Of a stretch of DNA of 64,000 nucleotides, positions 4,075 to 46,870 are shown piece after piece. The stretch lies in contig JBQTHI010000044.1 in NCBI GenBank assembly GCA_052390035.1, positions 6,797 through 70,796 of the forward strand. The letters are read 5' to 3'. This DNA comes from Actinomycetota bacterium. Lineage in GTDB: Bacteria > Actinomycetota > Acidimicrobiia > Spongiisociales > ZC4RG35. A program made the position numbers and the translations under genes. Positions within the stretch are counted from its first letter, which is position 1, and the number at the start of each line of letters is the position of its first letter. The notes under the pieces were generated by a model that saw only the letters and a list, made by a program, of their open reading frames with translations, had not been told where the DNA came from and made no database searches.

Positions 4075-4836
4075 ATGGATCTAAACGGGGTGTCTGCCAT
4101 CGTGACCGGGGGAGCCTCCGGCCTAGGCGCAGCCACCGTCAGGCGCTTGGCCAAGGCAGGCGCGACGGTCGTGATCGCAGATTTGCAGGACGAAAAAGGT
4201 GAGGCTCTCGCCGCCGAAGTGGGCGGTGCCTACGTTCATGCCGATGTGACCAACAACGATGAGGTGCAGGCGGCGGTGGAGAGCGCGATGTCATCGGCGC
4301 CGCTGCGAGCGGTGGTCAACTGCGCCGGGATCGGCCCTCCGGCCCGCACCCTCAACCGGGATGGCAGCCCGCACGACATCGGGCACTTCCGCACGGTGAT
4401 CGAAATCAACCTCCTTGGAACCTTCAATGTGATCCGCCTGGCGGCCTCTGCCATGTCCACTGGCGCTGCGCTGGACAACGGGCAGCGAGGAGCGATCGTC
4501 AACACCGCCTCGGTGGCTGCCTTTGACGGCCAGATCGGACAGGCCGCTTATTCGGCGTCCAAAGGCGGCATCGTCGGGATGACCCTTCCGATCGCACGCG
4601 ACCTCTCGGCGGTGGGTATCCGGGTGAACACCATCGCCCCCGGAATCATCGACACCCCGCTTCTGGCGGGGCTGCCCGAACCGGCGCGAATCTCCCTCGG
4701 TGAGCAGGTGCTCTTCCCCAAGCGTCTAGGCCAACCGGAGGAATACGCCGAGCTCGCCTACTTCCTCCTCACCCACGATTACATGAACGCCGAGTCGGTC
4801 CGTATGGACGGGGGCATCCGGATGGGGCCCAAATGA
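4075..4836 (+). CDS. short-chain dehydrogenase/reductase, 3-hydroxyacyl-CoA dehydrogenase type-2-like
   Basis: ATG at 4075 is preceded by an AAAGGAGG RBS. The sequence has TGGASGLG and Y-x3-K (YSASK) motifs. The upstream Arg-rich extension in the track ORF (3604..) is rejected as non-coding. Confidence 0.75.
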   Translation: MDLNGVSAIVTGGASGLGAATVRRLAKAGATVVIADLQDEKGEALAAEVGGAYVHADVTNNDEVQAAVESAMSSAPLRAVVNCAGIGPPARTLNRDGSPHDIGHFRTVIEINLLGTFNVIRLAASAMSTGAALDNGQRGAIVNTASVAAFDGQIGQAAYSASKGGIVGMTLPIARDLSAVGIRVNTIAPGIIDTPLLAGLPEPARISLGEQVLFPKRLGQPEEYAELAYFLLTHDYMNAESVRMDGGIRMGPK

Positions 4837-27968: not shown

Positions 27969-28981
27969 TGAATCCGGTCTTGAGGCGGGAACTACTCGAA
28001 CGATTCCGGACCCGCCGGGCCGCCTGGTTCATGTTCGCTTGGACCCTTGGCATCGGTCTGGTGGGGTACGTCACCTACCTGGTCAGCCAACAGTTTGCCA
28101 ACGGCAACTTTGGGATGGGCCGTCTGATCGCCACCGGGTTCATGGGCCGTTTCTTGTTCCAGGGGATGATGATGCTGATGATGAGCGCCGTGATCATGGT
28201 GGTCCCTGGAGTCACGGCCCTGGCCATCGTTTCGGAAAGAGAAAGACAGACCCTTCCGCTGCTCCAGGTCACTCAGCTCTCCAATTACCAGCTGGTGCTG
28301 GGCAAGCTGAGCTCGTCGATGTCCTATTTCCTGCTGTTGCTTTTGGCGGTCGCCCCGGTGATGGCACTGCCGCTGTTGTTTGGGGGGATGAGCTTGCTTG
28401 ATGTGTTGGCGGCCCTGGCCATCATGGTGGCGACGGCGGTCATGCTCGGGAGCGTGGCCTTGGCGATCTCCTCGCGGGCAAAGTCAAGTCGTGGAGCCGT
28501 AGCCGGGAGTTATGGCTTCGCTTTCATCATCGCCTTCTTCACGATCGCCGTGCTGCTCGCCGAGTTTCTGATCGTGCGGCCGGCTGGCGGGGCGCTGGTG
28601 CCACCCCGAGGCCGCGAGGTGTACAGCTCGTGGCTGAACCCCTACGTCGCCATGGTTGATGCCGTCGAGGCGCCCCTGGCGGTGAGCACTGCGTTTCTTC
28701 CCACCCCTTTTGCCCCGATCGACGCCCTGCTCTATGCCCGCCAGGGAGTATCCGGGGGGTTCGGGTTCGGAGGGTTCTTCGGAGGTGAGATCGGCGGCAA
28801 TTTGATAGTCGATGACTCGGGCCGGCAATTGATCCGCATGCGGCGAGGGCCAGTTTGGCTGCGCACTCTGATCATCTACGCGGCCATCAGTGCGTTGGCA
28901 TTGATGCGCGCCGCTCGGGTGTTGCGGGCGCCGGCTACGGCCGCGTTCCGTCTGCGGAGGAGCCGAAGTGTGGCGGCCTGA
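27965..28981 (+). CDS. ABC-2 family permease (NosY/COG1277-like)
   Basis: The start overlaps the upstream stop (ATGATG). It has 6 TM segments and the SERERQTLPLL motif typical of ABC-2 'multi-copper enzyme maturation' permeases. Confidence 0.7.
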   Translation: MMNPVLRRELLERFRTRRAAWFMFAWTLGIGLVGYVTYLVSQQFANGNFGMGRLIATGFMGRFLFQGMMMLMMSAVIMVVPGVTALAIVSERERQTLPLLQVTQLSNYQLVLGKLSSSMSYFLLLLLAVAPVMALPLLFGGMSLLDVLAALAIMVATAVMLGSVALAISSRAKSSRGAVAGSYGFAFIIAFFTIAVLLAEFLIVRPAGGALVPPRGREVYSSWLNPYVAMVDAVEAPLAVSTAFLPTPFAPIDALLYARQGVSGGFGFGGFFGGEIGGNLIVDDSGRQLIRMRRGPVWLRTLIIYAAISALALMRAARVLRAPATAAFRLRRSRSVAA

Positions 28982-30566
28982 ACCGGGCCTTCCGCCGACC
29001 GTGGCGGATCTGATCCGCGCCGCTCGGGCGCGCATGACCTGGTCTGGCTTGGCTCTTCGAGCCGTCACGTTGGTTGGGGTGGCGGCGGCCCTGGCTGCCG
29101 TCCTGGTAGCGGTTGGCCGTTTGGTGGCCCTGCCGTGGACCGAACCGGTTGCAGCCGGGCTCATTGGGGCCGGGGCGATGGCGGCGGTGCTAACGGGTCT
29201 TTTCCGGCCGGTTTCCCCCCAGGCGGCGGCGCTGGCCGTAGATCGTCGCCTGGGCGGATTTGACCGGATTTCGACGGCGCTCGAGCTGTCGAGCGGCGGT
29301 CCGAGCGGAGATCCCGAGGCTCGCCAGGTGGAGGCCGCCCGGGTGTGGGCGCAGAACCGAAGCGTGGCCTCCCTCGGTCGCCTATTTCCCCGCGGGTGGT
29401 TGCCGCGTCTGTCGGTGGGTGCGGTGGCTGCAACCCTCTTGCTGGCCCTGGTGCCTGCGGCCACCGACGTCTTGCTGGCCCGACATCGCGCCGAGCAACA
29501 GCTGATCGAGGAGGAGATCGAGCGGCTTACCGAGCACGCAGAAGAGGCTCCTCCCGAGGTCGCCGAGATGCTCGAACGACTGATCGAGGAGCTGGCCCGG
29601 GCAGAGAGCCTCGACCAGGCCATCTCCTCGCTGGGCGAGGCACGACAACAACTGGCCGAGCTGGCCGACCCGGCCGAGCTGGCTGCCCGCACCGCCTTGG
29701 CCGGCCTGGAACAGCGCCTCGAACAGAACCCGATCGCCGAGGGCGGCTCGGCCTCCGAACAACTGCGAGAACTCGCCCGACAGCTGAACGCGACCTCCCC
29801 GGAGGCAATGGCGGCCGCCGCCGCCGAATTGGCGGCTCGCGCCGGTGACCTGGCTGGTGTGGACCAGGAGCTATCCGATGCCCTGGCTGTAGCCGCTGCC
29901 GCTCTCGAACAGGCCGCTCTCGATCCTGGCGCGCTTGGAACCGCCGCTGTGGCTTTGGGTGAGGCGGCGTCTCAGCTTGATCGAGCGAACGCCGAGGCGG
30001 CCGAGGCAGCGGCCAGGGCTGACGTGCAGGCTCAGGTGAGAGACGCTCAGGCTCGCCTGGCCCAAGCGCGCGACGCCGGGACGGGACAAGCAACCGGAGA
30101 AGGTCAGGGTCAAGGGCAAGGCCAGGGTCAAGGGCAAGGTCAGGGCCAGGGGCAGGGCCAGGGGCAAGGCCAGGGGCAAGGGACTGGTGCAGGGGGCGGT
30201 GGAGGTGGGCAGGGCGCCGGTGGATCGAGCGGAAGCGGCGGCACCCAGGGTGGGACCGGTTCGGGAAGCGTCGGTCACGGCACCGGTGATCACGATCCGG
30301 TGCTCGATCCAGCTCGCAGTCAGATCTTCGACCCAGTTGAACATGGCCTCGGCGACGAGGTCAGGGTTGACCTCGGCCCGGGCAACACTCCCGGCGAGCC
30401 GACCGGCAGCACCAGCGGGCAGGGGGTCGAAAACTTGCCTCTCACCGGCTACGCCGACCGATTCACCCAATACCGCCAGGCGGCGTTGGATTCGCTCGAT
30501 CGTCTGGTTATCCCCACCGACCTCCAGGATCTTGTCCGCCGATATTTCACCGAGTTGGAGCCCTAG
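28968..30566 (+). CDS. membrane-anchored coiled-coil protein with (GQ)13 / Gly-rich low-complexity region
   Basis: GTG 28968 follows a GGAGG RBS. The protein has N-terminal TM helices, a long Ala/Glu/Leu-rich coiled coil, (GQ)13, a Gly-rich segment and a conserved-looking C-terminal 60 aa. Confidence 0.55.
   Translation: MWRPEPGLPPTVADLIRAARARMTWSGLALRAVTLVGVAAALAAVLVAVGRLVALPWTEPVAAGLIGAGAMAAVLTGLFRPVSPQAAALAVDRRLGGFDRISTALELSSGGPSGDPEARQVEAARVWAQNRSVASLGRLFPRGWLPRLSVGAVAATLLLALVPAATDVLLARHRAEQQLIEEEIERLTEHAEEAPPEVAEMLERLIEELARAESLDQAISSLGEARQQLAELADPAELAARTALAGLEQRLEQNPIAEGGSASEQLRELARQLNATSPEAMAAAAAELAARAGDLAGVDQELSDALAVAAAALEQAALDPGALGTAAVALGEAASQLDRANAEAAEAAARADVQAQVRDAQARLAQARDAGTGQATGEGQGQGQGQGQGQGQGQGQGQGQGQGQGTGAGGGGGGQGAGGSSGSGGTQGGTGSGSVGHGTGDHDPVLDPARSQIFDPVEHGLGDEVRVDLGPGNTPGEPTGSTSGQGVENLPLTGYADRFTQYRQAALDSLDRLVIPTDLQDLVRRYFTELEP
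30102..30179 (+). repeat. in-frame hexanucleotide repeat (GGNCAR)x13 encoding (Gly-Gln)13
   Basis: Read directly: ggtcagggtcaagggcaaggccagggtcaagggcaagg... Confidence 0.85.
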
Positions 30567-30622
30567 ACCCAGATGAGTAGACCCAGATGAGTAGACCCGA
30601 ATGAGTACACCCAGATGAATTC
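30567..30622 (+). repeat. four tandem copies of a 14-bp repeat (ACCCAGATGAGTAG) bridging the upstream stop codon and the moxR start codon
   Basis: Copies sit at 30567, 30581, 30595 (ACCCGAATGAGTAC) and 30609 (ACCCAGATGAATTC). The moxR ATG (30615) lies inside copy 4. Each copy carries an ATG. Confidence 0.8.
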
Positions 30623-31583
30623 ACCAGAGGAGTTCGCCCGTTCTCTCAACGCCGCTCGGGCCGAGATCGGCAAAGTCATCGTCGGCCAGAAGGATCTCGT
30701 CGACACCGTTCTCACCGCCGCGTTGTGCGAAGGCCATGTCCTACTGGAAGGTGTGCCTGGCCTCGGGAAGACCAAACTCCTGGCGACGCTGGGCCGAGTT
30801 TTGGACGTCGAGTTCGGGCGGGTTCAATTCACCCCTGATCTCATGCCTGCCGACATCCTCGGCACCAAGGTTTTGACCGGAAACGACTTCAAGTTCCACG
30901 AAGGTCCGATCTTTGCCAACCTGGTGTTGGCCGACGAAATCAATCGGGCAACTCCCAAGACCCAGTCGGCCCTGCTCGAAGCAATGCAGGAGCGGAGAGT
31001 GACCCTGGGAGGGGAGACCCACGCTCTCCCCCGACCCTTCCTGGTGATGGCGACTCAGAATCCGATCGAGCAGGAAGGCACCTACCCACTCCCCGAGGCT
31101 CAACTCGACCGGTTCCTTTTCAAGGCGCTCGTGAGCTTCCCGCCAGCCGACGACGTGGTTGAGATTCTCCGCCGCACCACCGCCGGCCACGAAGCCCAAC
31201 CCGATCCGGTGATCGATGGGGCAGCGATCATCGCCATGTCGGAGTTCGTGAGGAGCCTCCCCGCCGGGACCCACCTACTTGCCTACGCCGCCACCCTGGT
31301 CGAGGCAACCCACCCGGAAAGTGCCAAGGCTCCGGAAATGGTGCGGCGTTATGTCAGGTTCGGCGCCAGCCCCCGCGGCGCCCAGGCATTGGTCATGGGC
31401 GGGAAGGCCTTCGCCTTGATCGACGGCCGGCCCAACCTCGCCGCCGAAGACATATGGCGGGTGGCCCCGATGGCGCTCCGGCATCGACTGGTGCTCGGCT
31501 ACGAGGCGCTCGCCGACGGGATCAAAGCCGACGAGATCGTCACCGAGGTCCTCGGCGCTTATCCCGCTCCGATTGCCCGTTAG
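30615..31583 (+). CDS. MoxR-family AAA+ ATPase
   Basis: Walker A GVPGLGKT, Walker B LADEINRA and the MoxR N-terminal EIGKVIVGQ motif are present. Confidence 0.85.
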   Translation: MNSPEEFARSLNAARAEIGKVIVGQKDLVDTVLTAALCEGHVLLEGVPGLGKTKLLATLGRVLDVEFGRVQFTPDLMPADILGTKVLTGNDFKFHEGPIFANLVLADEINRATPKTQSALLEAMQERRVTLGGETHALPRPFLVMATQNPIEQEGTYPLPEAQLDRFLFKALVSFPPADDVVEILRRTTAGHEAQPDPVIDGAAIIAMSEFVRSLPAGTHLLAYAATLVEATHPESAKAPEMVRRYVRFGASPRGAQALVMGGKAFALIDGRPNLAAEDIWRVAPMALRHRLVLGYEALADGIKADEIVTEVLGAYPAPIAR

Positions 31584-32453
31584 ATGCTGCTCTCGGCGGA
31601 GTTACGGGGCCGTCTGGAGCGCCTCTCGATCACCACCCGCCGACGGGTCATAGCCCAGTGGGCCGGTCGGCACTCCTCCCGGCACAAAGGCGAGAGCCTT
31701 GACTTCGCCGACTCTCGGGCATATGTGCCCGGTGATGACTTCCGGAGGATCGACCACAACCTCTGGGCCAGGCTCGGCGTTCTTCTGGTTCGTCAATACC
31801 AGGCCGAGGAGGAGCTACCGCTTCGTCTGGTGATCGACACCTCGACCTCAATGGCGTTCTATCGCAAGCTCGAAACAGCCCGCACCCTGTCCGCCATGAT
31901 CGTGTACCTGGGTCTGGCCGGGGGGGACAGGGTCCAGTTGTTCGCCGTGCCAGGGCCCGACGATCTCGCCATGGAGGCGGGCCCGAGTGGCCGCCACCTT
32001 TCCCGCTGGCCGCAACTGGAAGCATGGATCGAGGGCCGCTCACCAACCGGGTCCGGCCCGATGGCGCCGTCTTTGCGACGGCTTGCGGGTGAAGGTCCCA
32101 ACCGCGGCTCGATAGTGCTCGTCTCCGATCTCCTGACCGCCGATTGGCAGCCGGCGCTCGACGGTCTGGGCCTTGGCACCGGAGGAGTGGTGCTCCATGT
32201 CCTCGGCGAAGAGGAAATCGACCCTTCGATTGCAGGCGATGTCCGTCTGGCCGATTCGGAGACCGGATCCGAGTTGGCGGTGTCCACCTCCGAAGAGGCG
32301 ATGCGACGTTATAGAACAGCGTTGGAGCAGTTCGCCTCCGAGGCTGGCCAACGCGCCAAGCGAGCCGGGCTTGATTACGTGTTGGTGCCGGCCCGAGATG
32401 ACGCTCCCGAGCAGGTGCTGGCCGCGCTCGCCCGAAGCGAGGCGGTGGCATGA
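31584..32453 (+). CDS. DUF58 domain protein (MoxR partner)
   Basis: The ATG abuts the moxR TAG. The motif DFADSRAYVPGDDFRRIDHN is typical of DUF58. Confidence 0.75.
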   Translation: MLLSAELRGRLERLSITTRRRVIAQWAGRHSSRHKGESLDFADSRAYVPGDDFRRIDHNLWARLGVLLVRQYQAEEELPLRLVIDTSTSMAFYRKLETARTLSAMIVYLGLAGGDRVQLFAVPGPDDLAMEAGPSGRHLSRWPQLEAWIEGRSPTGSGPMAPSLRRLAGEGPNRGSIVLVSDLLTADWQPALDGLGLGTGGVVLHVLGEEEIDPSIAGDVRLADSETGSELAVSTSEEAMRRYRTALEQFASEAGQRAKRAGLDYVLVPARDDAPEQVLAALARSEAVA

Positions 32454-32469
32454 CTCGGCGGCTCGGGCT

Positions 32470-34278
32470 GTGAGCTTCCTCATACCCACCGCCTTGGGTC
32501 TGGCGGCTCTGGCCGGGCCCCTCATCGTCCTATACATGCTCCGATCCCGACGACCACGCATCGAAGTGGCAAGCACCATGTTGTGGGAGAAGGTCGAGGT
32601 CCCGGTGTCCTCGGCCGTCCCGTGGCAAAAGCTGAAAATGACACCGCTTCTCATTCTCCAGCTGTTGGTGCTCGCCGGTTTCGTGCTCACCCTGGCCCGG
32701 CCGTTCTACACCCAGGCGACATTGCTCGGCCCCCACACCGTGTTTGTGTTCGACACCTCGGGCTCGATGGCGATGGCCGATCGCCTGGAAAAAGCTGTAT
32801 CCAACTCCCGCCGGCTGCTCACCGACCTCTCTTCTGACAACCAGGTATCGATCATCAACGCCGGGCCGGTGCCGAGAGTGTTGGTCGCTTTCGCCCGTGA
32901 CCCCGAACTGGTCGAAACCGGCCTCGACTCCCTCGTGCCAACCGGCGGGCGTGCTGACCTGTCGGGTGCCATCCGCCTCGCCCGCGGTCTGGCCACCCCC
33001 GACCACCCCACCAACATCCTCATCTTCTCCGATGGGGGCGACGCCGTGCTTCCCGAAGAGCCCGTGGTGGGGGCCGAGCTGATCCTCTTTGACGACTTCG
33101 GCCCAAATCTGGCGATCACCTCCTGGTCGCTGGAACCGTCGACCGAAGGTACCACCAGGGCCTTTCTGCAAGTCGCCAATTTCTCGACCGAAGAGCGCAC
33201 CGTCAGGGCGGAGGTAGCCGTCAACGGCCTGGCCGCCGGTCTGCTTGATCTGGACGTACCCGCTCAGGGGAACGCTCGGCGGACCACCCCGATCGACGCC
33301 GGTGCCGGGGACGTGGTTTCGGTCTCGCTGGTCGGCAACGAGGATTCCCTTCCGCTTGATGATCGGGCCGATCTGTTGGTGGGTGGCGGACCGGATCGGG
33401 AGGTGACATTGAGCGGTGAGGGATCACCGTTCCTCGAAGCATTGATCGATGCAGTTCCCGGATTCTCGACGAATACCGCCAACGACGGTGGCGACCTTCA
33501 GGTCATCGATCGCGGGGATCAATATGACATCGACCGGCCAACCTGGCTCATTGCCCCGACCACCCCCCCTGAGGGGGTCACCTTGATTGAATTCGTTCGG
33601 AACACGGCGGTGACCTATCAGCGGCCCGGTGAGCCGATTCTCGATTCGGTCGACCTATCACAGATGGCTGTGGCAGAGGCTCAGGTGGTGGATGCCCCCC
33701 GCTGGCTGACTCTGGTCAGGGCGGGCGAAGTGCCCCTGATCCTGCTGGGGGAGGTGAGCGGACACCGCGTGGCGTATTTCACTTTTGATCTGACTCATTC
33801 CAACCTGCCCATCCAAATCGGGTTTCCGATTTTGGGCGCTCGTCTGCTCGATTGGCTGGCAGGCGGTAGTGCAGGAGCCGTCCTAACCGAACCTGCCGGC
33901 AGCCCGATCCAGTTGACCGCCGCCCCCGGCTCCACCATTTTCGTAACCACGCCCAACGGGGAGCGCAGACAACTCGCCGAGGGCGCTACGTCATTTGTGG
34001 ATACGGGAGCACCCGGCGTCTATCGAGTGGCATCAGTTGACGCCGACGGCGCCGTAAGTGAAGGTCCCTCCGCGGTGCGCACCTTCGTCGCTGAAGAATC
34101 GGCGGGAAGCTCCCGGCTGATCACCACCACCGGAGCCGCCACCGAGACCGAAGAGCCATCGGTGCTGATCAGGGAGTGGGCTCCTTGGGTCATTTCCGTG
34201 GTGGTGGTGTTGATGGCCATCGAGTGGTGGGTTGGCCACCAGCGGCCCTTCTTACCTCGCCGGCGGGTCACCGCATGA
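32470..34278 (+). CDS. BatA-like membrane protein with vWA domain
   Basis: GTG 32470 gives MSFLIPTALGLAALAGPLIVLYMLRSRRP (aerotolerance-regulator N-terminal TM). The vWA MIDAS-like motif is VFDTSGSM. A C-terminal TM is present. Confidence 0.65.
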   Translation: MSFLIPTALGLAALAGPLIVLYMLRSRRPRIEVASTMLWEKVEVPVSSAVPWQKLKMTPLLILQLLVLAGFVLTLARPFYTQATLLGPHTVFVFDTSGSMAMADRLEKAVSNSRRLLTDLSSDNQVSIINAGPVPRVLVAFARDPELVETGLDSLVPTGGRADLSGAIRLARGLATPDHPTNILIFSDGGDAVLPEEPVVGAELILFDDFGPNLAITSWSLEPSTEGTTRAFLQVANFSTEERTVRAEVAVNGLAAGLLDLDVPAQGNARRTTPIDAGAGDVVSVSLVGNEDSLPLDDRADLLVGGGPDREVTLSGEGSPFLEALIDAVPGFSTNTANDGGDLQVIDRGDQYDIDRPTWLIAPTTPPEGVTLIEFVRNTAVTYQRPGEPILDSVDLSQMAVAEAQVVDAPRWLTLVRAGEVPLILLGEVSGHRVAYFTFDLTHSNLPIQIGFPILGARLLDWLAGGSAGAVLTEPAGSPIQLTAAPGSTIFVTTPNGERRQLAEGATSFVDTGAPGVYRVASVDADGAVSEGPSAVRTFVAEESAGSSRLITTTGAATETEEPSVLIREWAPWVISVVVVLMAIEWWVGHQRPFLPRRRVTA

Positions 34279-36974
34279 GGTTCGCCCATCCCTGGTGGTT
34301 GGTGGCCATACCCCCCGTTCTGGGGCTGACCTGGCTAGTCGCCCGGCGCGGGGGACGAGCGGTTTCACGGCGTCAACATCGGTGGGCGCTCGGGATTCGC
34401 CTTGGCGGGTTGCTGCTCTTGGTCACTGCCGCCGCCCAACCGATCGTCACCAGATCGGTGGACGATCGTGCGGTCCTGTTTCTGCTTGATCGGTCTGCTT
34501 CGGTATCGGATTCGGCCCGCGCCGCGCAGGAGGCTTTCCTGAGTGCGGCGCTGGCCGAAGGCAGAGCCGATGGGCGGACCGCGGTGGCGGTGTTTGGCCG
34601 CGACAGTCGACTCGACTCGGCGTTCACCGTTGACAGGTCCGGAGGCCCGATCAGGACGATCCCTGACGACTCGGCGACCGACATCGCTTCGGCCCTGCAA
34701 GCCGCCGCTTCGTTGATGCCCTCGGAGGGTTCACGGCGCATCGTCCTCCTCACCGATCTGGTCCCCACTACGGGCGACGTCGGCCCGGCGATCCGTCAGC
34801 TGGCAGAACAAGGCGTGGCGGTGGATGTCGTCGAGCTGGCGTCCGCTCGAACCCCCGATGCCCTGGTCGAATCGGTGATCCTGCCTCCAGCAGTGCGCGA
34901 GGGTGACACCGTGCCGGTTACGGCGGTGATTCGCTCCAATCAGGCAGGGTCGGCCGTGGTGGCGGTGAGATCCGGCGATGGTGACGAGCAGCGGATTCCC
35001 GTCCAGGTGGTGGCTGGGCGCAACGAGGTATCGCTCGAAGTCAACGCGGTGGGAGTCGGGTTCCTCCCGGTTTCGATCCAGGTCGAAACGGAGTTCGATA
35101 CGAGACCGGAGAACAATCGGGCGGAGGGGATCACCCGAATTCTCGGCCCTGCCCGAGTGGCGGTGGTGGAGGGAGTCGCCGGAGAGGCCGAGGCGCTGGG
35201 TGAGGCGCTCGTCGCCGGAGGAATCGAGGCCGACCTTCGGCGTTCGATCCCCACGGAGGGGGAGCTGCTCAGCTATGACGCGGTCGTCCTGGTGAATGTC
35301 GATCAGCCGGGACTGGTGGAATCGGAGAACCTCTCGGCGTTTGTTGAAGATCTCGGGCGTGGACTGGTGGTTGTTGGTGGCGACCGGGCTTTTGGGCTTG
35401 GTGACTACCACGAGACGCCGCTTGAGGCGGTGCTTCCCGTGAGTTCGAATCCGGACGACCTGGTGAGGCGTCAGCCGGTGGCGGAGGTGCTGGTCATCGA
35501 CTCCTCCGGGTCGATGGGTGCCTGTCACTGCAACATGGGCCAGGCCGCCGAAGGTGGGGTGGTGAAAACCGATATCGCCAAGGCCGGAGCGGAGCTCGCC
35601 ATCAACGCCCTCACCGACGATGATCGGGTTGGTGTGCTGGCGTTCTCATCAGGCACGGACTGGGTGATTCCCCTGGCGCCCCGCTCAACCATCACCGACC
35701 CGGCGGGGGCTCTCGGGGTGATCACTCCCAATGGTGACACCGAGATCTCCAACGCCCTTGAGGTGGCGCTTGACGAGCTGGCCGGCGCTCCCGAGCAGCT
35801 CCGCCACATCGTCCTCTTTACCGACGGGTGGGATCCGAGCGATGCTGCCCTATTGCCAATGGCGCGGGAAATCGCCGATGCCGGAGTGACTCTTTCGGTG
35901 TTGGGCACCGGGGAGGGTCCGGGCACGACTCTGAGCCGGATGGCCGAGCTGGGCGGCGGACGTTTTTACGCCGGCACGGACCTGGAGGCGGTTCCGGAGG
36001 TCTTCGTCGAGGAGACTTTGATCGTTGCCCGCAATCTGGCCGTCGAGGGGACCTTCTTTCCGATCCTCGCTGCCCCATCTCCCGTCACCCAGGATCTGAC
36101 CGCCTCCCCACCCCTGCTCGGTTATGTGCTGACCAAGGCCAAAGGAAGTGCTTCGCTCCTGATGGAGATCGGGCAGGCCGACCCGCTTCTTGCCACCTGG
36201 CAGCGCGGGCTGGGGCGGGCCACCGTCTGGACGTCGGATGCCACCGTCCGGTGGTCGAGCCAGTGGGTGGACTGGGAGGAGTATGCGGACTTCTGGGGTC
36301 GTTTGGTAAGAGACGTGTTGCCAGCGGGGCGGGAGAATCCGCCAGCCGTTCACGTCGAAGACGGCCGGCTGGTCATTTCCTACCAACAGCAGGGCACCGA
36401 CCTCGACGCCTCCGCCTCGGCCCGGGTTCGCCGGCCCGACGGCGAGGTAATCGAAGTCCCCATGGACCGGGTGAGCGGCTCCGATTTCTCCGCCCGGGTA
36501 GCCCTGGGCCCGGCCGGCGCCTATTGGGTCGCCGTCACCGTTGACAATCCCGATGGCTCGCAGATTGTTTCCGGAGCAGGGGCAGTTTCCGCCTATGAAG
36601 AGGAGTTCGCCTTCCGCGAGCCGGATCCGGCGTTGGGGGCCGCCATCACGACGATCACCGGCGGGAGGCTCAACCCCGGACCAGCAACCGTGTTCGATCC
36701 GGCCCCCGTGCGGGGACGGGCCGAAGTTTCCTTCTGGCCGTGGTTGGCCGCCGCCGCTCTGGCTCTCTTCCTCCTCGACGTGGCCTTGAGCCGGCTGCTG
36801 CTCGGGGAGGGTGACGCCCAGGCCTGGCGGGAAGGGCTGACTTCAACCGGCCGTGGCAGGGAGAGGCGGCGGGTGGCGCGGGCAGTTGAAGAGGCCACGA
36901 CCAGTCGGGAGGCACCGCCGGTTCTCTCCGACTCGGAGACCCTCGAACGCCTGATGCGCCGTAAACGACGATGA
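34275..36974 (+). CDS. large membrane protein with two vWA domains and a class-I glutamine-amidotransferase-like domain
   Basis: The ATG overlaps the upstream stop (ATGA). There are two DxSxS-type vWA motifs (LLDRSASVSD; VIDSSGSMG), a GATase1-like segment, and a C-terminal TM plus Arg-rich tail. Confidence 0.6.
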   Translation: MRFAHPWWLVAIPPVLGLTWLVARRGGRAVSRRQHRWALGIRLGGLLLLVTAAAQPIVTRSVDDRAVLFLLDRSASVSDSARAAQEAFLSAALAEGRADGRTAVAVFGRDSRLDSAFTVDRSGGPIRTIPDDSATDIASALQAAASLMPSEGSRRIVLLTDLVPTTGDVGPAIRQLAEQGVAVDVVELASARTPDALVESVILPPAVREGDTVPVTAVIRSNQAGSAVVAVRSGDGDEQRIPVQVVAGRNEVSLEVNAVGVGFLPVSIQVETEFDTRPENNRAEGITRILGPARVAVVEGVAGEAEALGEALVAGGIEADLRRSIPTEGELLSYDAVVLVNVDQPGLVESENLSAFVEDLGRGLVVVGGDRAFGLGDYHETPLEAVLPVSSNPDDLVRRQPVAEVLVIDSSGSMGACHCNMGQAAEGGVVKTDIAKAGAELAINALTDDDRVGVLAFSSGTDWVIPLAPRSTITDPAGALGVITPNGDTEISNALEVALDELAGAPEQLRHIVLFTDGWDPSDAALLPMAREIADAGVTLSVLGTGEGPGTTLSRMAELGGGRFYAGTDLEAVPEVFVEETLIVARNLAVEGTFFPILAAPSPVTQDLTASPPLLGYVLTKAKGSASLLMEIGQADPLLATWQRGLGRATVWTSDATVRWSSQWVDWEEYADFWGRLVRDVLPAGRENPPAVHVEDGRLVISYQQQGTDLDASASARVRRPDGEVIEVPMDRVSGSDFSARVALGPAGAYWVAVTVDNPDGSQIVSGAGAVSAYEEEFAFREPDPALGAAITTITGGRLNPGPATVFDPAPVRGRAEVSFWPWLAAAALALFLLDVALSRLLLGEGDAQAWREGLTSTGRGRERRRVARAVEEATTSREAPPVLSDSETLERLMRRKRR

Positions 36975-37011
36975 CCGTGTCCGAGCGAGAGGGCGGTTAC
37001 CTACCATCCGC

Positions 37012-38112
37012 ATGGTGACCGCAAAGCGACGTCAGGCTGAGAAGCCCCCCGCGTGGCTCTCCCGGGCTGTGATAATCGTCGTCGGGATCCTGGCACTGGC
37101 GGCGGCGGCGGGCTTGGTCCTTTATCGCATCCGCGGGCTGTTCTATATGCTTTTCCTCGCCACCTTCGTGGCAATTGCTCTTGAACCGGCCGTGCAGCGA
37201 CTCGTCAGGCGTGGGTGGAAGCGTTCCCGGGCAACCCAGCTCGTCTTTTTTGTCGCCGCCCTGCTTTTCGCCGGGTTCCTGGTTGCCCTCATCCCGGTGT
37301 TCGTTGCCCAGGCGGCCCGTCTCATCGAGACCGTGCCGCTTTATCTCGAAGACCTACAGCAGCTTGCCTCCACCTACTTTCAAATCGAGCTGGTCGATCC
37401 GGACATCACCGGACAATTCGAGGACCTGGGAGGCCTTTTGCGCCAATATGCCTCGGAGGTGGCGGGAGGAATCTTCGCCATCGGCAACACCGTCTTCGGT
37501 GCCGTCTTCCAATTGGTCACCGTGACCCTGTTCGCCTACTACCTGGTCGCTGTAGGTCCGACCTGGAGACGGGCGCTCTTGTCAACCCTGCCGCCCGAGC
37601 GTCAGCGCGAGGCGCTCAACATCTGGGAGGTATCGGTCGCCAAGACCGGGGGATACGTCTATTCGCGCCTGGTGCTGGCCGTCGTTGCCGGGATATTCAC
37701 CTTCCTGGTGCTGATCATCCTGCGGGTCCCGTCGGCCGCCGCCCTGGCCGTATGGATGGGGGTGCTCTCCCAGTTCGTTCCGGTCATCGGTACCTACGTC
37801 GGGCTCGTATTGCCGGGTCTGGCTGCCCTGGCCTTAAGTCCTCTCACGGCGCTGTGGGTCATTGTTGCCTTGGTCGGCTACCAGCAGATAGAAAACTATC
37901 TGATCGCCCCCAGGGTTACCGCCCGTACGATGGCGATGCACCCGGCGGTCACCATCGGAGCTCTGATCGCTGGAGCGAGCCTCCTCGGGGCGATGGGAGC
38001 GGTGCTGGCCCTCCCCGTGGCGGCGACCATCCAGGCATTGATCTCGACAACACTCCAGCGCCATACCCTGGTGGACTCGCCCTACCTCGAGGATCTGGTT
38101 GAGCGGGTTTGA
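37012..38112 (+). CDS. AI-2E family transporter (PerM/UPF0118)
   Basis: 8 TM segments. The YQQIENYLIAPRV motif is present. Confidence 0.8.
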   Translation: MVTAKRRQAEKPPAWLSRAVIIVVGILALAAAAGLVLYRIRGLFYMLFLATFVAIALEPAVQRLVRRGWKRSRATQLVFFVAALLFAGFLVALIPVFVAQAARLIETVPLYLEDLQQLASTYFQIELVDPDITGQFEDLGGLLRQYASEVAGGIFAIGNTVFGAVFQLVTVTLFAYYLVAVGPTWRRALLSTLPPERQREALNIWEVSVAKTGGYVYSRLVLAVVAGIFTFLVLIILRVPSAAALAVWMGVLSQFVPVIGTYVGLVLPGLAALALSPLTALWVIVALVGYQQIENYLIAPRVTARTMAMHPAVTIGALIAGASLLGAMGAVLALPVAATIQALISTTLQRHTLVDSPYLEDLVERV

Positions 38113-45220: not shown

Positions 45221-46870
45221 CTAGTTGACGGTGACCGACACCACCGCCGTGTCACATGCCCCGTCGACGTCACAAACCTGATATGTGAAATTGACCATTC
45301 CGGAGAAGTTGGGAGGGGCGGAATAACGGATTCGGCCGTTACCGAAGACGACCGCCGATCCGACCGAGGGGGCATCCACAATTGACAGCGAGCTAGCGAC
45401 GATTGGCCCCGAGTCGTTTGCCAATACGCCGATGTTGACCTTCTCGTTCGGTCGGGTGAAGGCTGAGTCGTCCAAGGCCGCCAGTGTGCCGGGGATGGTG
45501 GTGGTCGTGGTGGTGGTGGTGGTGGGCAGGGTCGTGGTGGTGGTGGTGGTGGTCGTTGAGGTGAGGGGTCCGCTGGTGGTCGTGGTGGGCCCCGCCGGGA
45601 GCGTCGTGCTTGCGCTGGTAGTGGTGGATGAGGTCGGCGTTGGCGTCGCCGGTCCCGAGCCGGTCGGTACTTCCGAGAGCCCCGTTCCTCCCGGCCTCCC
45701 GCCCGCACTCGCCGTGGGTTGTCCCTCGGCGAGTTGTTCGATTCGGGCGCGGACCGGTTGGTGGACGAGGTCAATTGCCGGGAGGAGGTTGGCGGAGCCG
45801 GCGGTGGCGGTGATGAGGCCGGCGGCGATCACCGTCGCCACATCGCGACCGAGGACCTCCAATGGACGGAGCAGAGGAAGATCGGCGAGGGCGGCCAGCG
45901 GTCCGGTCGACCACCGCAACCGCCCGAGGGCGATGTTCATGAGGGCGCGGACGACTCGTGGGTCGAATTGTGCGCCGGCGTGGCGGGCCACTTCGGCGCG
46001 AGCATCGGCGTGACTCATCTTGGTTTTGTACGAACGGCCGGTGACCATCACGTCATAGGCATCGGCCACCGCAACGATGCGGGCTCCAAGGGCAATGTCT
46101 TCGCCGGCAAGGCCGTGGGGGTAGCCGGAGCCGTCCCACCTTTCGTGGTGATGTTCGATGGTGGTCGCCCACGGTCCGAGCCAGCCCACGATCGGAGCGA
46201 TGAGGCGCATCCCCTCGAGGGGATGGCGATGAATCTGCTTCCACTCCTCGGCGTCGAGGGAGGATGGCTTGTTGAGGATCTCGGCCGGCACCTCCAGCTT
46301 GCCGATGTCGTGAAGTAAAGCTGCCCAGCGCAGTCGATCGCGAGCCTCGTCTCCGAGTCTCATCTCCTCCGCCAGCAGATCGGTGTAGGCGCGGGTTCTC
46401 TCCGAGTGTCCCCGGGTCCGACGGTCGTGCTGGGAGAGGGAGGCGGCGAGAGTGAGGATCAGCTCGGCGGCTTCGGCGATGTCCTGCTTACCAGCGGCGG
46501 TGGCCGCCTCCAGTCGAGCCCGAAGCTGGTTGACGCCGCCGGCGCGATGGGCGACACGGTAGCGGGGGGGAGCCTTGTCGGGAAACGCCAAGGTCAGCTT
46601 CAAAAGGGCGGACAGCGGTATGAGGCGCCTGGTGAACGTTTCGGTGATGTGGGCGGCGAGGCCGGCCGTGGCGATGACCACCGTCCACCACAGCACGATG
46701 GCCATCGGCTCCTGGGGCGATTCCATGAGGCTCGCCGCGACACCACCGGCGAAATACCCGGCGACGATCGGGATGGCAAACGCCGCCAGCCGCACCACCG
46801 TGGCGATTCCCCGACGAGAGCGCCATTGGTGGGCGGATCGCTCCTTTGACCGCGGCCTACGACCCTTCAC
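45221..46870 (-). CDS. membrane HD-GYP phosphodiesterase with C-terminal Thr/Pro-rich linker and Ig-like (VCBS/cadherin-like) domain
   Basis: The start is GTG. Two N-terminal TM helices precede the HD (HDIGK) and GYP (HHERWDGSGYPHGL) motifs. A third hydrophobic helix follows, then a poly-Thr linker and the C-terminal NFTYQVCDVDGACDTAVVSVTV motif. Confidence 0.7.
   Translation of the reverse strand: MKGRRPRSKERSAHQWRSRRGIATVVRLAAFAIPIVAGYFAGGVAASLMESPQEPMAIVLWWTVVIATAGLAAHITETFTRRLIPLSALLKLTLAFPDKAPPRYRVAHRAGGVNQLRARLEAATAAGKQDIAEAAELILTLAASLSQHDRRTRGHSERTRAYTDLLAEEMRLGDEARDRLRWAALLHDIGKLEVPAEILNKPSSLDAEEWKQIHRHPLEGMRLIAPIVGWLGPWATTIEHHHERWDGSGYPHGLAGEDIALGARIVAVADAYDVMVTGRSYKTKMSHADARAEVARHAGAQFDPRVVRALMNIALGRLRWSTGPLAALADLPLLRPLEVLGRDVATVIAAGLITATAGSANLLPAIDLVHQPVRARIEQLAEGQPTASAGGRPGGTGLSEVPTGSGPATPTPTSSTTTSASTTLPAGPTTTTSGPLTSTTTTTTTTTLPTTTTTTTTTIPGTLAALDDSAFTRPNEKVNIGVLANDSGPIVASSLSIVDAPSVGSAVVFGNGRIRYSAPPNFSGMVNFTYQVCDVDGACDTAVVSVTVN
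45495..45640. repeat. (GGT/ACC)n-rich trinucleotide repeat tract encoding the poly-Thr linker
   Basis: The plus strand reads ggtggtggtcgtggtggtggtggtgg... Confidence 0.7.

Follow-up and report, generated by a model that had tools for sequence, protein, structure and literature searches.

A 14-bp tandem array between an upstream gene and moxR in an actinobacterial operon: a probable local expansion of the moxR start and a possible relay of ATGA-linked mini-ORFs

Overview

Two co-oriented genes of an operon in the window (by which we mean the whole 64-kb stretch of DNA that was analyzed), encoding a 532-aa protein and the ATPase MoxR, are separated by four head-to-tail copies of a 14-bp unit. 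We found that this array is most likely a tandem expansion, by replication slippage, of the first 14 nt of moxR, and that it is specific to the lineage of the window; in these two points taken together, origin and lineage specificity, our confidence is high. As every copy carries an ATGA and the period of 14 equals 3 × 5 − 1, the spacer forms a chain of three overlapping 5-codon ORFs that leads to the moxR start. The explanation that we prefer, by a modest balance of probability, is that a local slippage expansion was tolerated because this relay geometry keeps moxR translationally coupled to the gene upstream. Judged from the geometry, the chances that ribosomes actually use the relay are about even. 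In the core of the same operon, spacers longer than 10 nt are bridged by ORFs across the clade.

Results

The array and the operon around it

Re-reading of the sequence bore out the preliminary description of four head-to-tail 14-bp copies at 30567–30622, with the moxR ATG (30615–30617) lying inside copy 4 and the ATGs of copies 1 and 4 standing 42 nt apart and in frame (Table 1). Copies 1 and 2 are perfect, as had been described. The ‘2–3 substitutions’ given for the other two had to be corrected, as copies 3 and 4 have three changes apiece relative to the perfect 14-mer, leaving copies 1 and 2 as the only identical pair. The array is 56 bp long, and the gap between the upstream stop codon and the moxR ATG is 48 nt. 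Tandem Repeats Finder (TRF) reported it with a score of 89, a period of 14, 3.9 copies and 87% matches; a second row carried the array to 30633 with 4.9 copies, taking in the degenerate fifth copy. Read from 5′ to 3′, the ends of the units form a gradient: TAG, TAG, TAG, TAC, TTC, TTC. At the composition of the window (G+C ∼64%), ∼0.0007 perfect adjacent 14-mer pairs are expected by chance per 64 kb, and none of 100 window shuffles equalled the observed number of near-matches to the unit. Therefore, we concluded that the 14-bp repeat is beyond chance.

Table 1. Features of the array, its flanking genes and the ORF-bridged spacers of the operon family (window positions unless a related locus is named)
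Feature	Position	Strand	Description
Upstream gene	28968..30566	+	532-aa membrane/coiled-coil protein, (GQ)n tract, ends ...YFTELEP-TAG
Upstream-gene stop TAG	30564..30566	+	sits where relatives have the ATGA overlap; GAGCC-CTAG here, GAGCC-ATGA in relatives
Repeat copy 1	30567-30580	+	ACCCAGATGAGTAG
Repeat copy 2	30581-30594	+	ACCCAGATGAGTAG, identical to copy 1
Repeat copy 3	30595-30608	+	ACCCGAATGAGTAC, 3 substitutions
Repeat copy 4	30609-30622	+	ACCCAGATGAATTC, 3 substitutions; holds the moxR start codon
Degenerate fifth copy, 13 nt	30623-30635	+	ACC-AGAGGAGTTC, within moxR
Mini-ORF 1	30573..30590	+	MSRPR*; ATG 6 nt past the upstream TAG; TGA overlaps the ATG of mini-ORF 2
Mini-ORF 2	30587..30604	+	MSRPE*; ATGA overlap at either end
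Mini-ORF 3	30601..30618	+	MSTPR*; TGA 30616-30618 overlaps the moxR ATG 30615-30617
moxR	30615..31583	+	322-aa AAA_3 / MoxR ATPase; Pfam AAA_3 E=3.7e-63
DUF58/BatA spacer, window, 16 nt	32450-32473		ATGA, 7-codon ORF MTRRLGL, GTGA
moxR/DUF58 spacer, L081, 43 nt	L081 3463-3512		15-codon ORF, ATGA ... TGATG
DUF58/BatA spacer, L081, 103 nt	L081 4376-4486		36-codon ORF, ATGAGC at either end
DUF58/BatA spacer, L082, 145 nt	L082 2144-2296		50-codon ORF, 4-nt overlap at either end
DUF58/BatA spacer, L100-L103, 133 nt	L100 8833-8973		46-codon ORF, 4-nt overlap at either end
moxR/DUF58 spacer, L089, 15 nt			TGATG, MPR, then +4

The preliminary description had also stated that no comparable repeat occurs elsewhere in the window. 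This held for the 14-mer motif and failed for tandem repeats at large, two others being present at 30100–30182 and 45496–45588, both of them coding. The former is a hexanucleotide repeat that yields the (GQ)n tract of the 532-aa upstream protein, and its length varies across the clade (by TRF, 13.8 units in the window, 24.0 in L081, 19.8 in L083, 21.0 in L085 and 18.5 in L086). The latter, (TGG)n with ∼30 units, encodes the poly-Thr linker of a minus-strand gene (45221–46870), whose 549-aa translation contains the HD-GYP-like motif HHERWDGSGYP.

The co-directional block runs in the order 743-aa membrane protein, ABC ATPase, ABC-2 permease, 532-aa protein, MoxR, DUF58, BatA/VWA and VWA/GATase1-like. 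Its remaining junctions are GTGA (−4), ATGA (−4), −14, TAG-ATG (0) and ATGA (−4), plus one 16-nt spacer, so that the 48-nt array is the single large gap in the block. Both genes flanking the array are intact and of full length relative to their orthologs. The 532-aa protein gave no Pfam match; its C-terminal 100 aa are 71–79% identical to those of its orthologs, which share the terminal YFTELEP.

We also searched the region for signals. The promoter/terminator scan of 29800–31000 returned no promoter-like site and one weak terminator-like site, which lies within moxR on the other strand and is no better than chance. No Rfam family matched 30000–31200 at a permissive threshold, the predicted RNA fold of 30520–30680 was no more stable than those of shuffled sequences (z = +0.87), and neither inverted repeats nor dyad symmetry were found in 30400–30800. 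The sequence preceding the ATG at 30615, GAGTACACCCAG, has no recognizable Shine-Dalgarno motif.

The orthologous junction in relatives

Orthologous operons were recovered via the closest MoxR proteins, together with a metagenome scan using the conserved C-terminus of the upstream protein. The relatives examined (L081–L092 and L096–L103, plus one place that has gene coordinates but no DNA) amount to ∼14 distinct sequences. MoxR of the window is 83–86% identical to the proteins of these operons and 84–87% identical to its best homologs, and those of the best homologs that bear a taxon name are labelled Acidimicrobiia. The exact window MoxR is absent from the record, the best homolog in the collections being 87% identical.

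We observed that in all ∼14 distinct relatives the upstream gene ends in ...YFTELEP and its TGA overlaps the moxR ATG in a 4-nt ATGA, the junction reading ...GAGTTGGA(A/G)CC-ATGA-.... The invariance of this junction implies selection on coupling. The 14-mer unit is absent from the 103 fetched loci, orthologous operons included, and a 24-mer spanning two copies had no match in the metagenome collection. According to the preliminary description, an invariant copy number together with lack of the repeat at orthologous loci would speak for a recent, neutral duplication; the second half of this holds, the repeat being missing from every orthologous locus examined. As the relatives are only 67–77% identical to the window in moxR at the nucleotide level, the array can be dated only as younger than that split.

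The moxR start itself also differs. The window protein begins MNSPEEF and its close orthologs M(T/N/S)PEEF. None of the 120 best MoxR homologs starts with MNSPEEF; the close ones of similar length among them begin M(T/N/S/K)P(E/D/Q)...F.

Origin of the unit

In L085, L088, L098 and L099, the 14 nt that follow the ATGA are ACCCAGAAGAGTTC, codons 2–6 of MNPEEF. Without gaps, this 14-mer matches window copies 1–4 at 11, 11, 10 and 12 of 14 positions, respectively; at least 10 matching positions are reached by 28 of the ∼64,000 14-mers of the window. The relatives align as GAGCC ATGA ACCCAGAAGAGTTC GCC and the window as GAGCC CTAG (unit × 4) ACC-AGAGGAGTTC GCC, where the fifth copy represents the native moxR codons for (S)PEEF minus one C. 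This fifth copy is the presumed source copy. As the unit matches the 14-mer that follows the ATGA in orthologs, we concluded that the array was built locally from the moxR start.

A path from the ancestral junction can be proposed, in which the order of the mutational steps is what we infer from the present sequence. In the ancestor, the upstream stop and the moxR start would have been fused as ATGA, a 4-nt overlap coupling translation by termination-reinitiation. The expansion would have pushed the upstream gene and moxR 48 nt apart, and the old ATGA would have become CTAG, whose stop leaves the ELEP end of the upstream protein unchanged. An A-to-T change (AGAAGAG to AGATGAG) probably created the ATGA inside the unit, the moxR start would have moved into the last full copy (copy 4), and a 1-nt deletion in the fifth copy would have put the copy 4 ATG in frame. 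The moxR start now reads ATG AAT TCA followed by the native CCA GAG GAG TTC, and the extra residue of MNSPEEF is there because the 1-nt deletion in the fifth copy restored the frame. The identity of the two 5′ copies indicates that the last duplication took place at the 5′ end. Against such an expansion path, several mutations are needed, and the step orders that we tried pass through a frameshifted intermediate. We also considered a self-healing path, in which duplication of TGAACCCAGAAGAG gives a GTGA junction and leaves MoxR unchanged; the unit boundaries fit the ACCC...TTC register better, and this path was set aside.

A chain of mini-ORFs leading to the moxR start

The suggestion that the array could encode reiterated mini-ORFs was well founded. 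The preliminary description had each ATG followed within 2–5 codons by a stop, which we could sharpen: the first three ATGs each open a 5-codon ORF whose TGA overlaps the next ATG, the last of them ending on the moxR start. Thus, −4 overlaps join mini-ORFs 1/2, 2/3 and 3/moxR, and the junction with the upstream gene is at +6, which places three of the four junctions at −4.

In E. coli, reinitiation falls steeply with spacing, with 80–100% lost at +38 nt and variable outcomes already at +2 (PMC10666635). Given this steep drop, a plain 48-nt spacer should uncouple moxR. A downstream gene can receive its ribosomes from short ORFs coupled at −4, mycobacterial interspersed repetitive units (MIRUs) being a natural case (review PMC12548453). 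In the present array, a ribosome ending the upstream gene at the TAG could restart 6 nt downstream at the first ATG and could then pass along the three ATGA junctions until it reaches the moxR ATG. The array would in this way keep moxR coupled to its upstream partner, probably at lower efficiency than the ancestral overlap, and it is by such retained coupling that, in our proposal, the insertion came to be tolerated.

Two features of the chain temper this proposal. The relay property follows automatically from an ATGA-bearing unit with a period of 2 mod 3, which has a prior chance of ∼1 in 3. The ATGA is intact in all four copies, and the probability that the six substitutions missed those positions by chance is p = 0.13, which is not significant. 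It also tells against a relay that the first hop is at +6 nt rather than an overlap and that four serial reinitiations could be very inefficient. In its favor, with RNA structure, an Rfam family and promoter-like sites all lacking in the scans above, no other obvious route for the expression of moxR presents itself.

ORF-bridged spacers across the operon family

We compared the remaining spacers of the operon in the window and its relatives. In the core block, from the 532-aa gene through moxR, DUF58 and BatA to the VWA gene, every spacer longer than 10 nt is ORF-bridged, both in the window and in the relatives (Table 1). Counting the homologous inserts of L082 and L100–L103 as one case, there are six independent bridged spacers. 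The window BatA start, a GTG at 32470, was set by alignment to the MSFLIP... starts of its orthologs. The 46-aa ORF of the L100–L103 spacer is listed in the source’s own gene calls. The frame relation is kept in both the L082 and the L100 insert, in spite of their unequal lengths (50 versus 46 codons). At the moxR/DUF58 junction, the spacing in the window and most relatives is 0 to +4 nt.

Several side observations were made on these spacers. The DUF58/BatA junction is a direct −4 overlap in several relatives. The 103-nt spacer of L081 contains two heptamer arrays, GCGTTTT × 4.6 (4383–4414, perfect) and ACGCACC × 4.6 (4448–4479), and looks like an insertion that duplicated the junction. The L082 and L100–L103 inserts (∼140 nt) are G-rich in the 5′ arm and C-rich in the 3′ arm, with a GC hairpin in the middle, and look MITE/MIRU-like.

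For a background, we used loci from other phyla obtained by a MoxR genome-collection scan, in which the matches listed are dominated by the conserved MATQNPIE and the best is 60% identical. Bridging was seen in 6/6 spacers of the clade versus 2/34 moxR/DUF58 spacers of the other phyla among the matches listed (Fisher’s exact p = 7e-6), where gene starts in the distant loci were assigned by homology only and the less certain start-codon calls of the background would lower its bridged fraction. One background locus, L042 (uncultured bacterium), has a 127-nt moxR/DUF58 spacer that contains a 44-codon ORF with −4 overlaps at both ends; it is the sole strict bridged case of that set among the matches listed. 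Under a generous null, in which every insert duplicates an NTGA junction and its length is random, the per-case chances of the right length class without an in-frame stop are 0.33, 0.32, 0.245, 0.144 and 0.11, with a product of ∼4e-4.

At the edge of the cluster, the junction between the VWA gene and the next gene is bridged in the window and L098 and is without a bridge in L096 and L097. The window spacer at this place, between the VWA and AI-2E-transporter genes (37 nt; 36971–37018), holds a 15-codon ORF, MTVSEREGGYLPSAW, with −4 overlaps at both ends, and a similar 15-codon bridging ORF, MTRDYWERGDRHLAW, follows the VWA gene in L098 (13336–13388). Outside the gene cluster, crude GC3-based gene calls gave one weak case (TTG start, +4) in 10 co-directional spacers of the window; hence the bridging rule looks cluster-specific rather than genome-wide.

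Alternative explanations

The main rival to a relay is that the array is a neutral or slightly harmful slippage scar, moxR being initiated independently and Shine-Dalgarno-poor on an unstructured, relatively A-rich stretch, with the mini-ORFs as a by-product. We regard this as possible though rather doubtful. It agrees with the finding of the repeat in one lineage only, and the lack of significant RNA structure means that the moxR ATG may be accessible; the relay geometry, moreover, comes automatically with an ATGA unit of period 14, and the conservation of ATGA among the copies is not significant. However, an independent start would have to do without a recognizable Shine-Dalgarno motif ahead of the ATG, a neutral model does not predict the bridged spacers of the core operon (6/6 versus 2/34 among the matches listed; joint null ∼4e-4), and the invariance of the ancestral junction in the relatives implies selection on coupling. 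That the array was made spuriously by assembly or sequencing is scarcely credible: the copies are diverged rather than identical, the 56 bp fit within a read, the genes on either side are intact, and an artefact would not come with a fifth copy whose loss of 1 nt puts moxR exactly back in frame. A reiterated, iteron-like site at which a moxR regulator, protein or small RNA, would bind, an idea raised in the preliminary description, is very improbable too. Four direct repeats directly upstream of, and overlapping, a start codon would suit such a site; yet no further motif copy with ≤2 mismatches occurs in the 64 kb, the motif is absent from the 103 related loci and the metagenome collection, there is neither dyad symmetry nor an Rfam match, a period of 14 bp does not keep phase with the turns of the DNA helix, the place is intercistronic in a tight operon, and the moxR coding sequence is clearly where the unit comes from. 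A search for a regulon motif left six further window matches, each with three mismatches; the chance average, counting all matches, is 3.4, and this candidate was dropped.

The preliminary description had further proposed that slipped-strand changes of copy number might make moxR expression phase-variable. This ON/OFF switching found no support: as the moxR start codon lies in the last copy, gain or loss of 14-nt units cannot shift its frame, and the array and its surroundings contain no promoter-like site whose spacing such changes could alter. It is also opposed by the state of the copies, only two of which are identical and the others 3/14 diverged, unlike homogenized, fast-slipping arrays. 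Any copy number of at least one leaves the mini-ORF chain intact; the array could at most serve as a dial of MoxR output. A heritable dial of this kind seems to us improbable; in it, the count of 14-nt steps would vary by slippage, and MoxR output would be adjusted against that of the upstream protein or, in the extreme case, shut off. Two adjacent perfect copies (28 bp) offer a substrate for slippage, the senX3-regX3 intergenic MIRU array, an analogous case with 77-bp units, has two versus three copies among BCG strains (PMC9392950), and each added reinitiation step should cost efficiency (PMC10666635). Against this stand the indifference of both the moxR frame and the promoter spacing to copy number, which leaves no ON/OFF logic, the divergence of copies 3 and 4, which shows that the array is not quickly homogenized, and a size (14 nt × 4 copies) far from that of typical contingency loci; the collections searched contained no second sequence of the same species that would show variation. 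A stronger form of the relay proposal is that the relay was selected, the number of steps setting the MoxR-to-partner ratio and being retunable by slippage, as one example of a broader rule for this Acidimicrobiia operon. We think this unlikely, and hold the same view of the rule that it invokes, namely that insertions at stop/start overlaps survive only as ORFs overlapped at both ends, perhaps beyond mycobacteria.

Discussion

The reading that we favor remains that of a local slippage expansion whose geometry maintained the coupling of moxR. Whether post-termination ribosomes cross spacers is still disputed in the literature, and the locus provides a natural test case, where a strictly conserved ATGA overlap has been replaced by a 48-nt spacer of three minimal ATGA-linked ORFs. 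If the relay works, it would show that an insertion at a stop/start overlap need not cost an operon the stoichiometric coupling of partner proteins, and the MIRU principle would extend to another actinobacterial class, with a far smaller unit of purely local origin. If not, we are dealing with an ordinary slippage scar confined to one lineage. The locus also documents a start codon reborn inside a duplicated copy of the 5′ end of its own gene.

Compared with contingency loci, the array shares a tandem repeat at the 5′ end of a gene and two perfect units that are able to slip. It departs from them in that its copy number alters neither reading frame nor promoter spacing and in that it is neither long nor homogeneous, with two of its four 14-nt copies identical (TRF, 87% matches).

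The likeness to MIRUs (Supply et al. 1997, as described in PMC12548453 and PMC3184786) is closer. In both, tandem repeats stand between two cistrons of an actinobacterial operon, here the co-oriented 532-aa gene and moxR; the units carry ORFs coupled at −4 to the neighboring start or stop, here at three junctions out of four; the units have lengths of 2 mod 3 (77 bp in senX3-regX3, PMC9392950; 14 bp here); and homologous loci without the insert exist in relatives (PMC3184786). MIRU units, however, measure ∼40–100 bp (PMC3184786) and belong to a dispersed, possibly mobile family of 40–50 copies, whereas the 14-bp array was made locally from codons of the downstream gene and has no other copy in the 64-kb window, the 103 related loci or the metagenome contigs. 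It also has no terminal or internal inverted repeats, and its first junction is at +6 rather than an overlap. In our analysis, the array would not be a member of the MIRU family and would be MIRU-like in its working, if it works at all.

The ATGA and TGATG stop/start pairs that act by termination-reinitiation (Huber et al. 2019, PMC6728339; 2023, PMC10666635) correspond to the ancestral junction found in all relatives, and ATGA overlaps of this type make up all the junctions within the array. Unlike such overlapping pairs, which all the relatives have, the window genes stand 48 nt apart, and their coupling, if kept, would run via three 5-codon ORFs after a first restart at +6 nt. A last parallel is provided by upstream ORFs that deliver ribosomes and by synthetic bicistronic designs (PMC12548453). 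The present array has three such ORFs in series, made by duplication, and unlike bicistronic designs, which have their own Shine-Dalgarno site, its mini-ORFs would be fed by the ribosome that terminates on the upstream gene.
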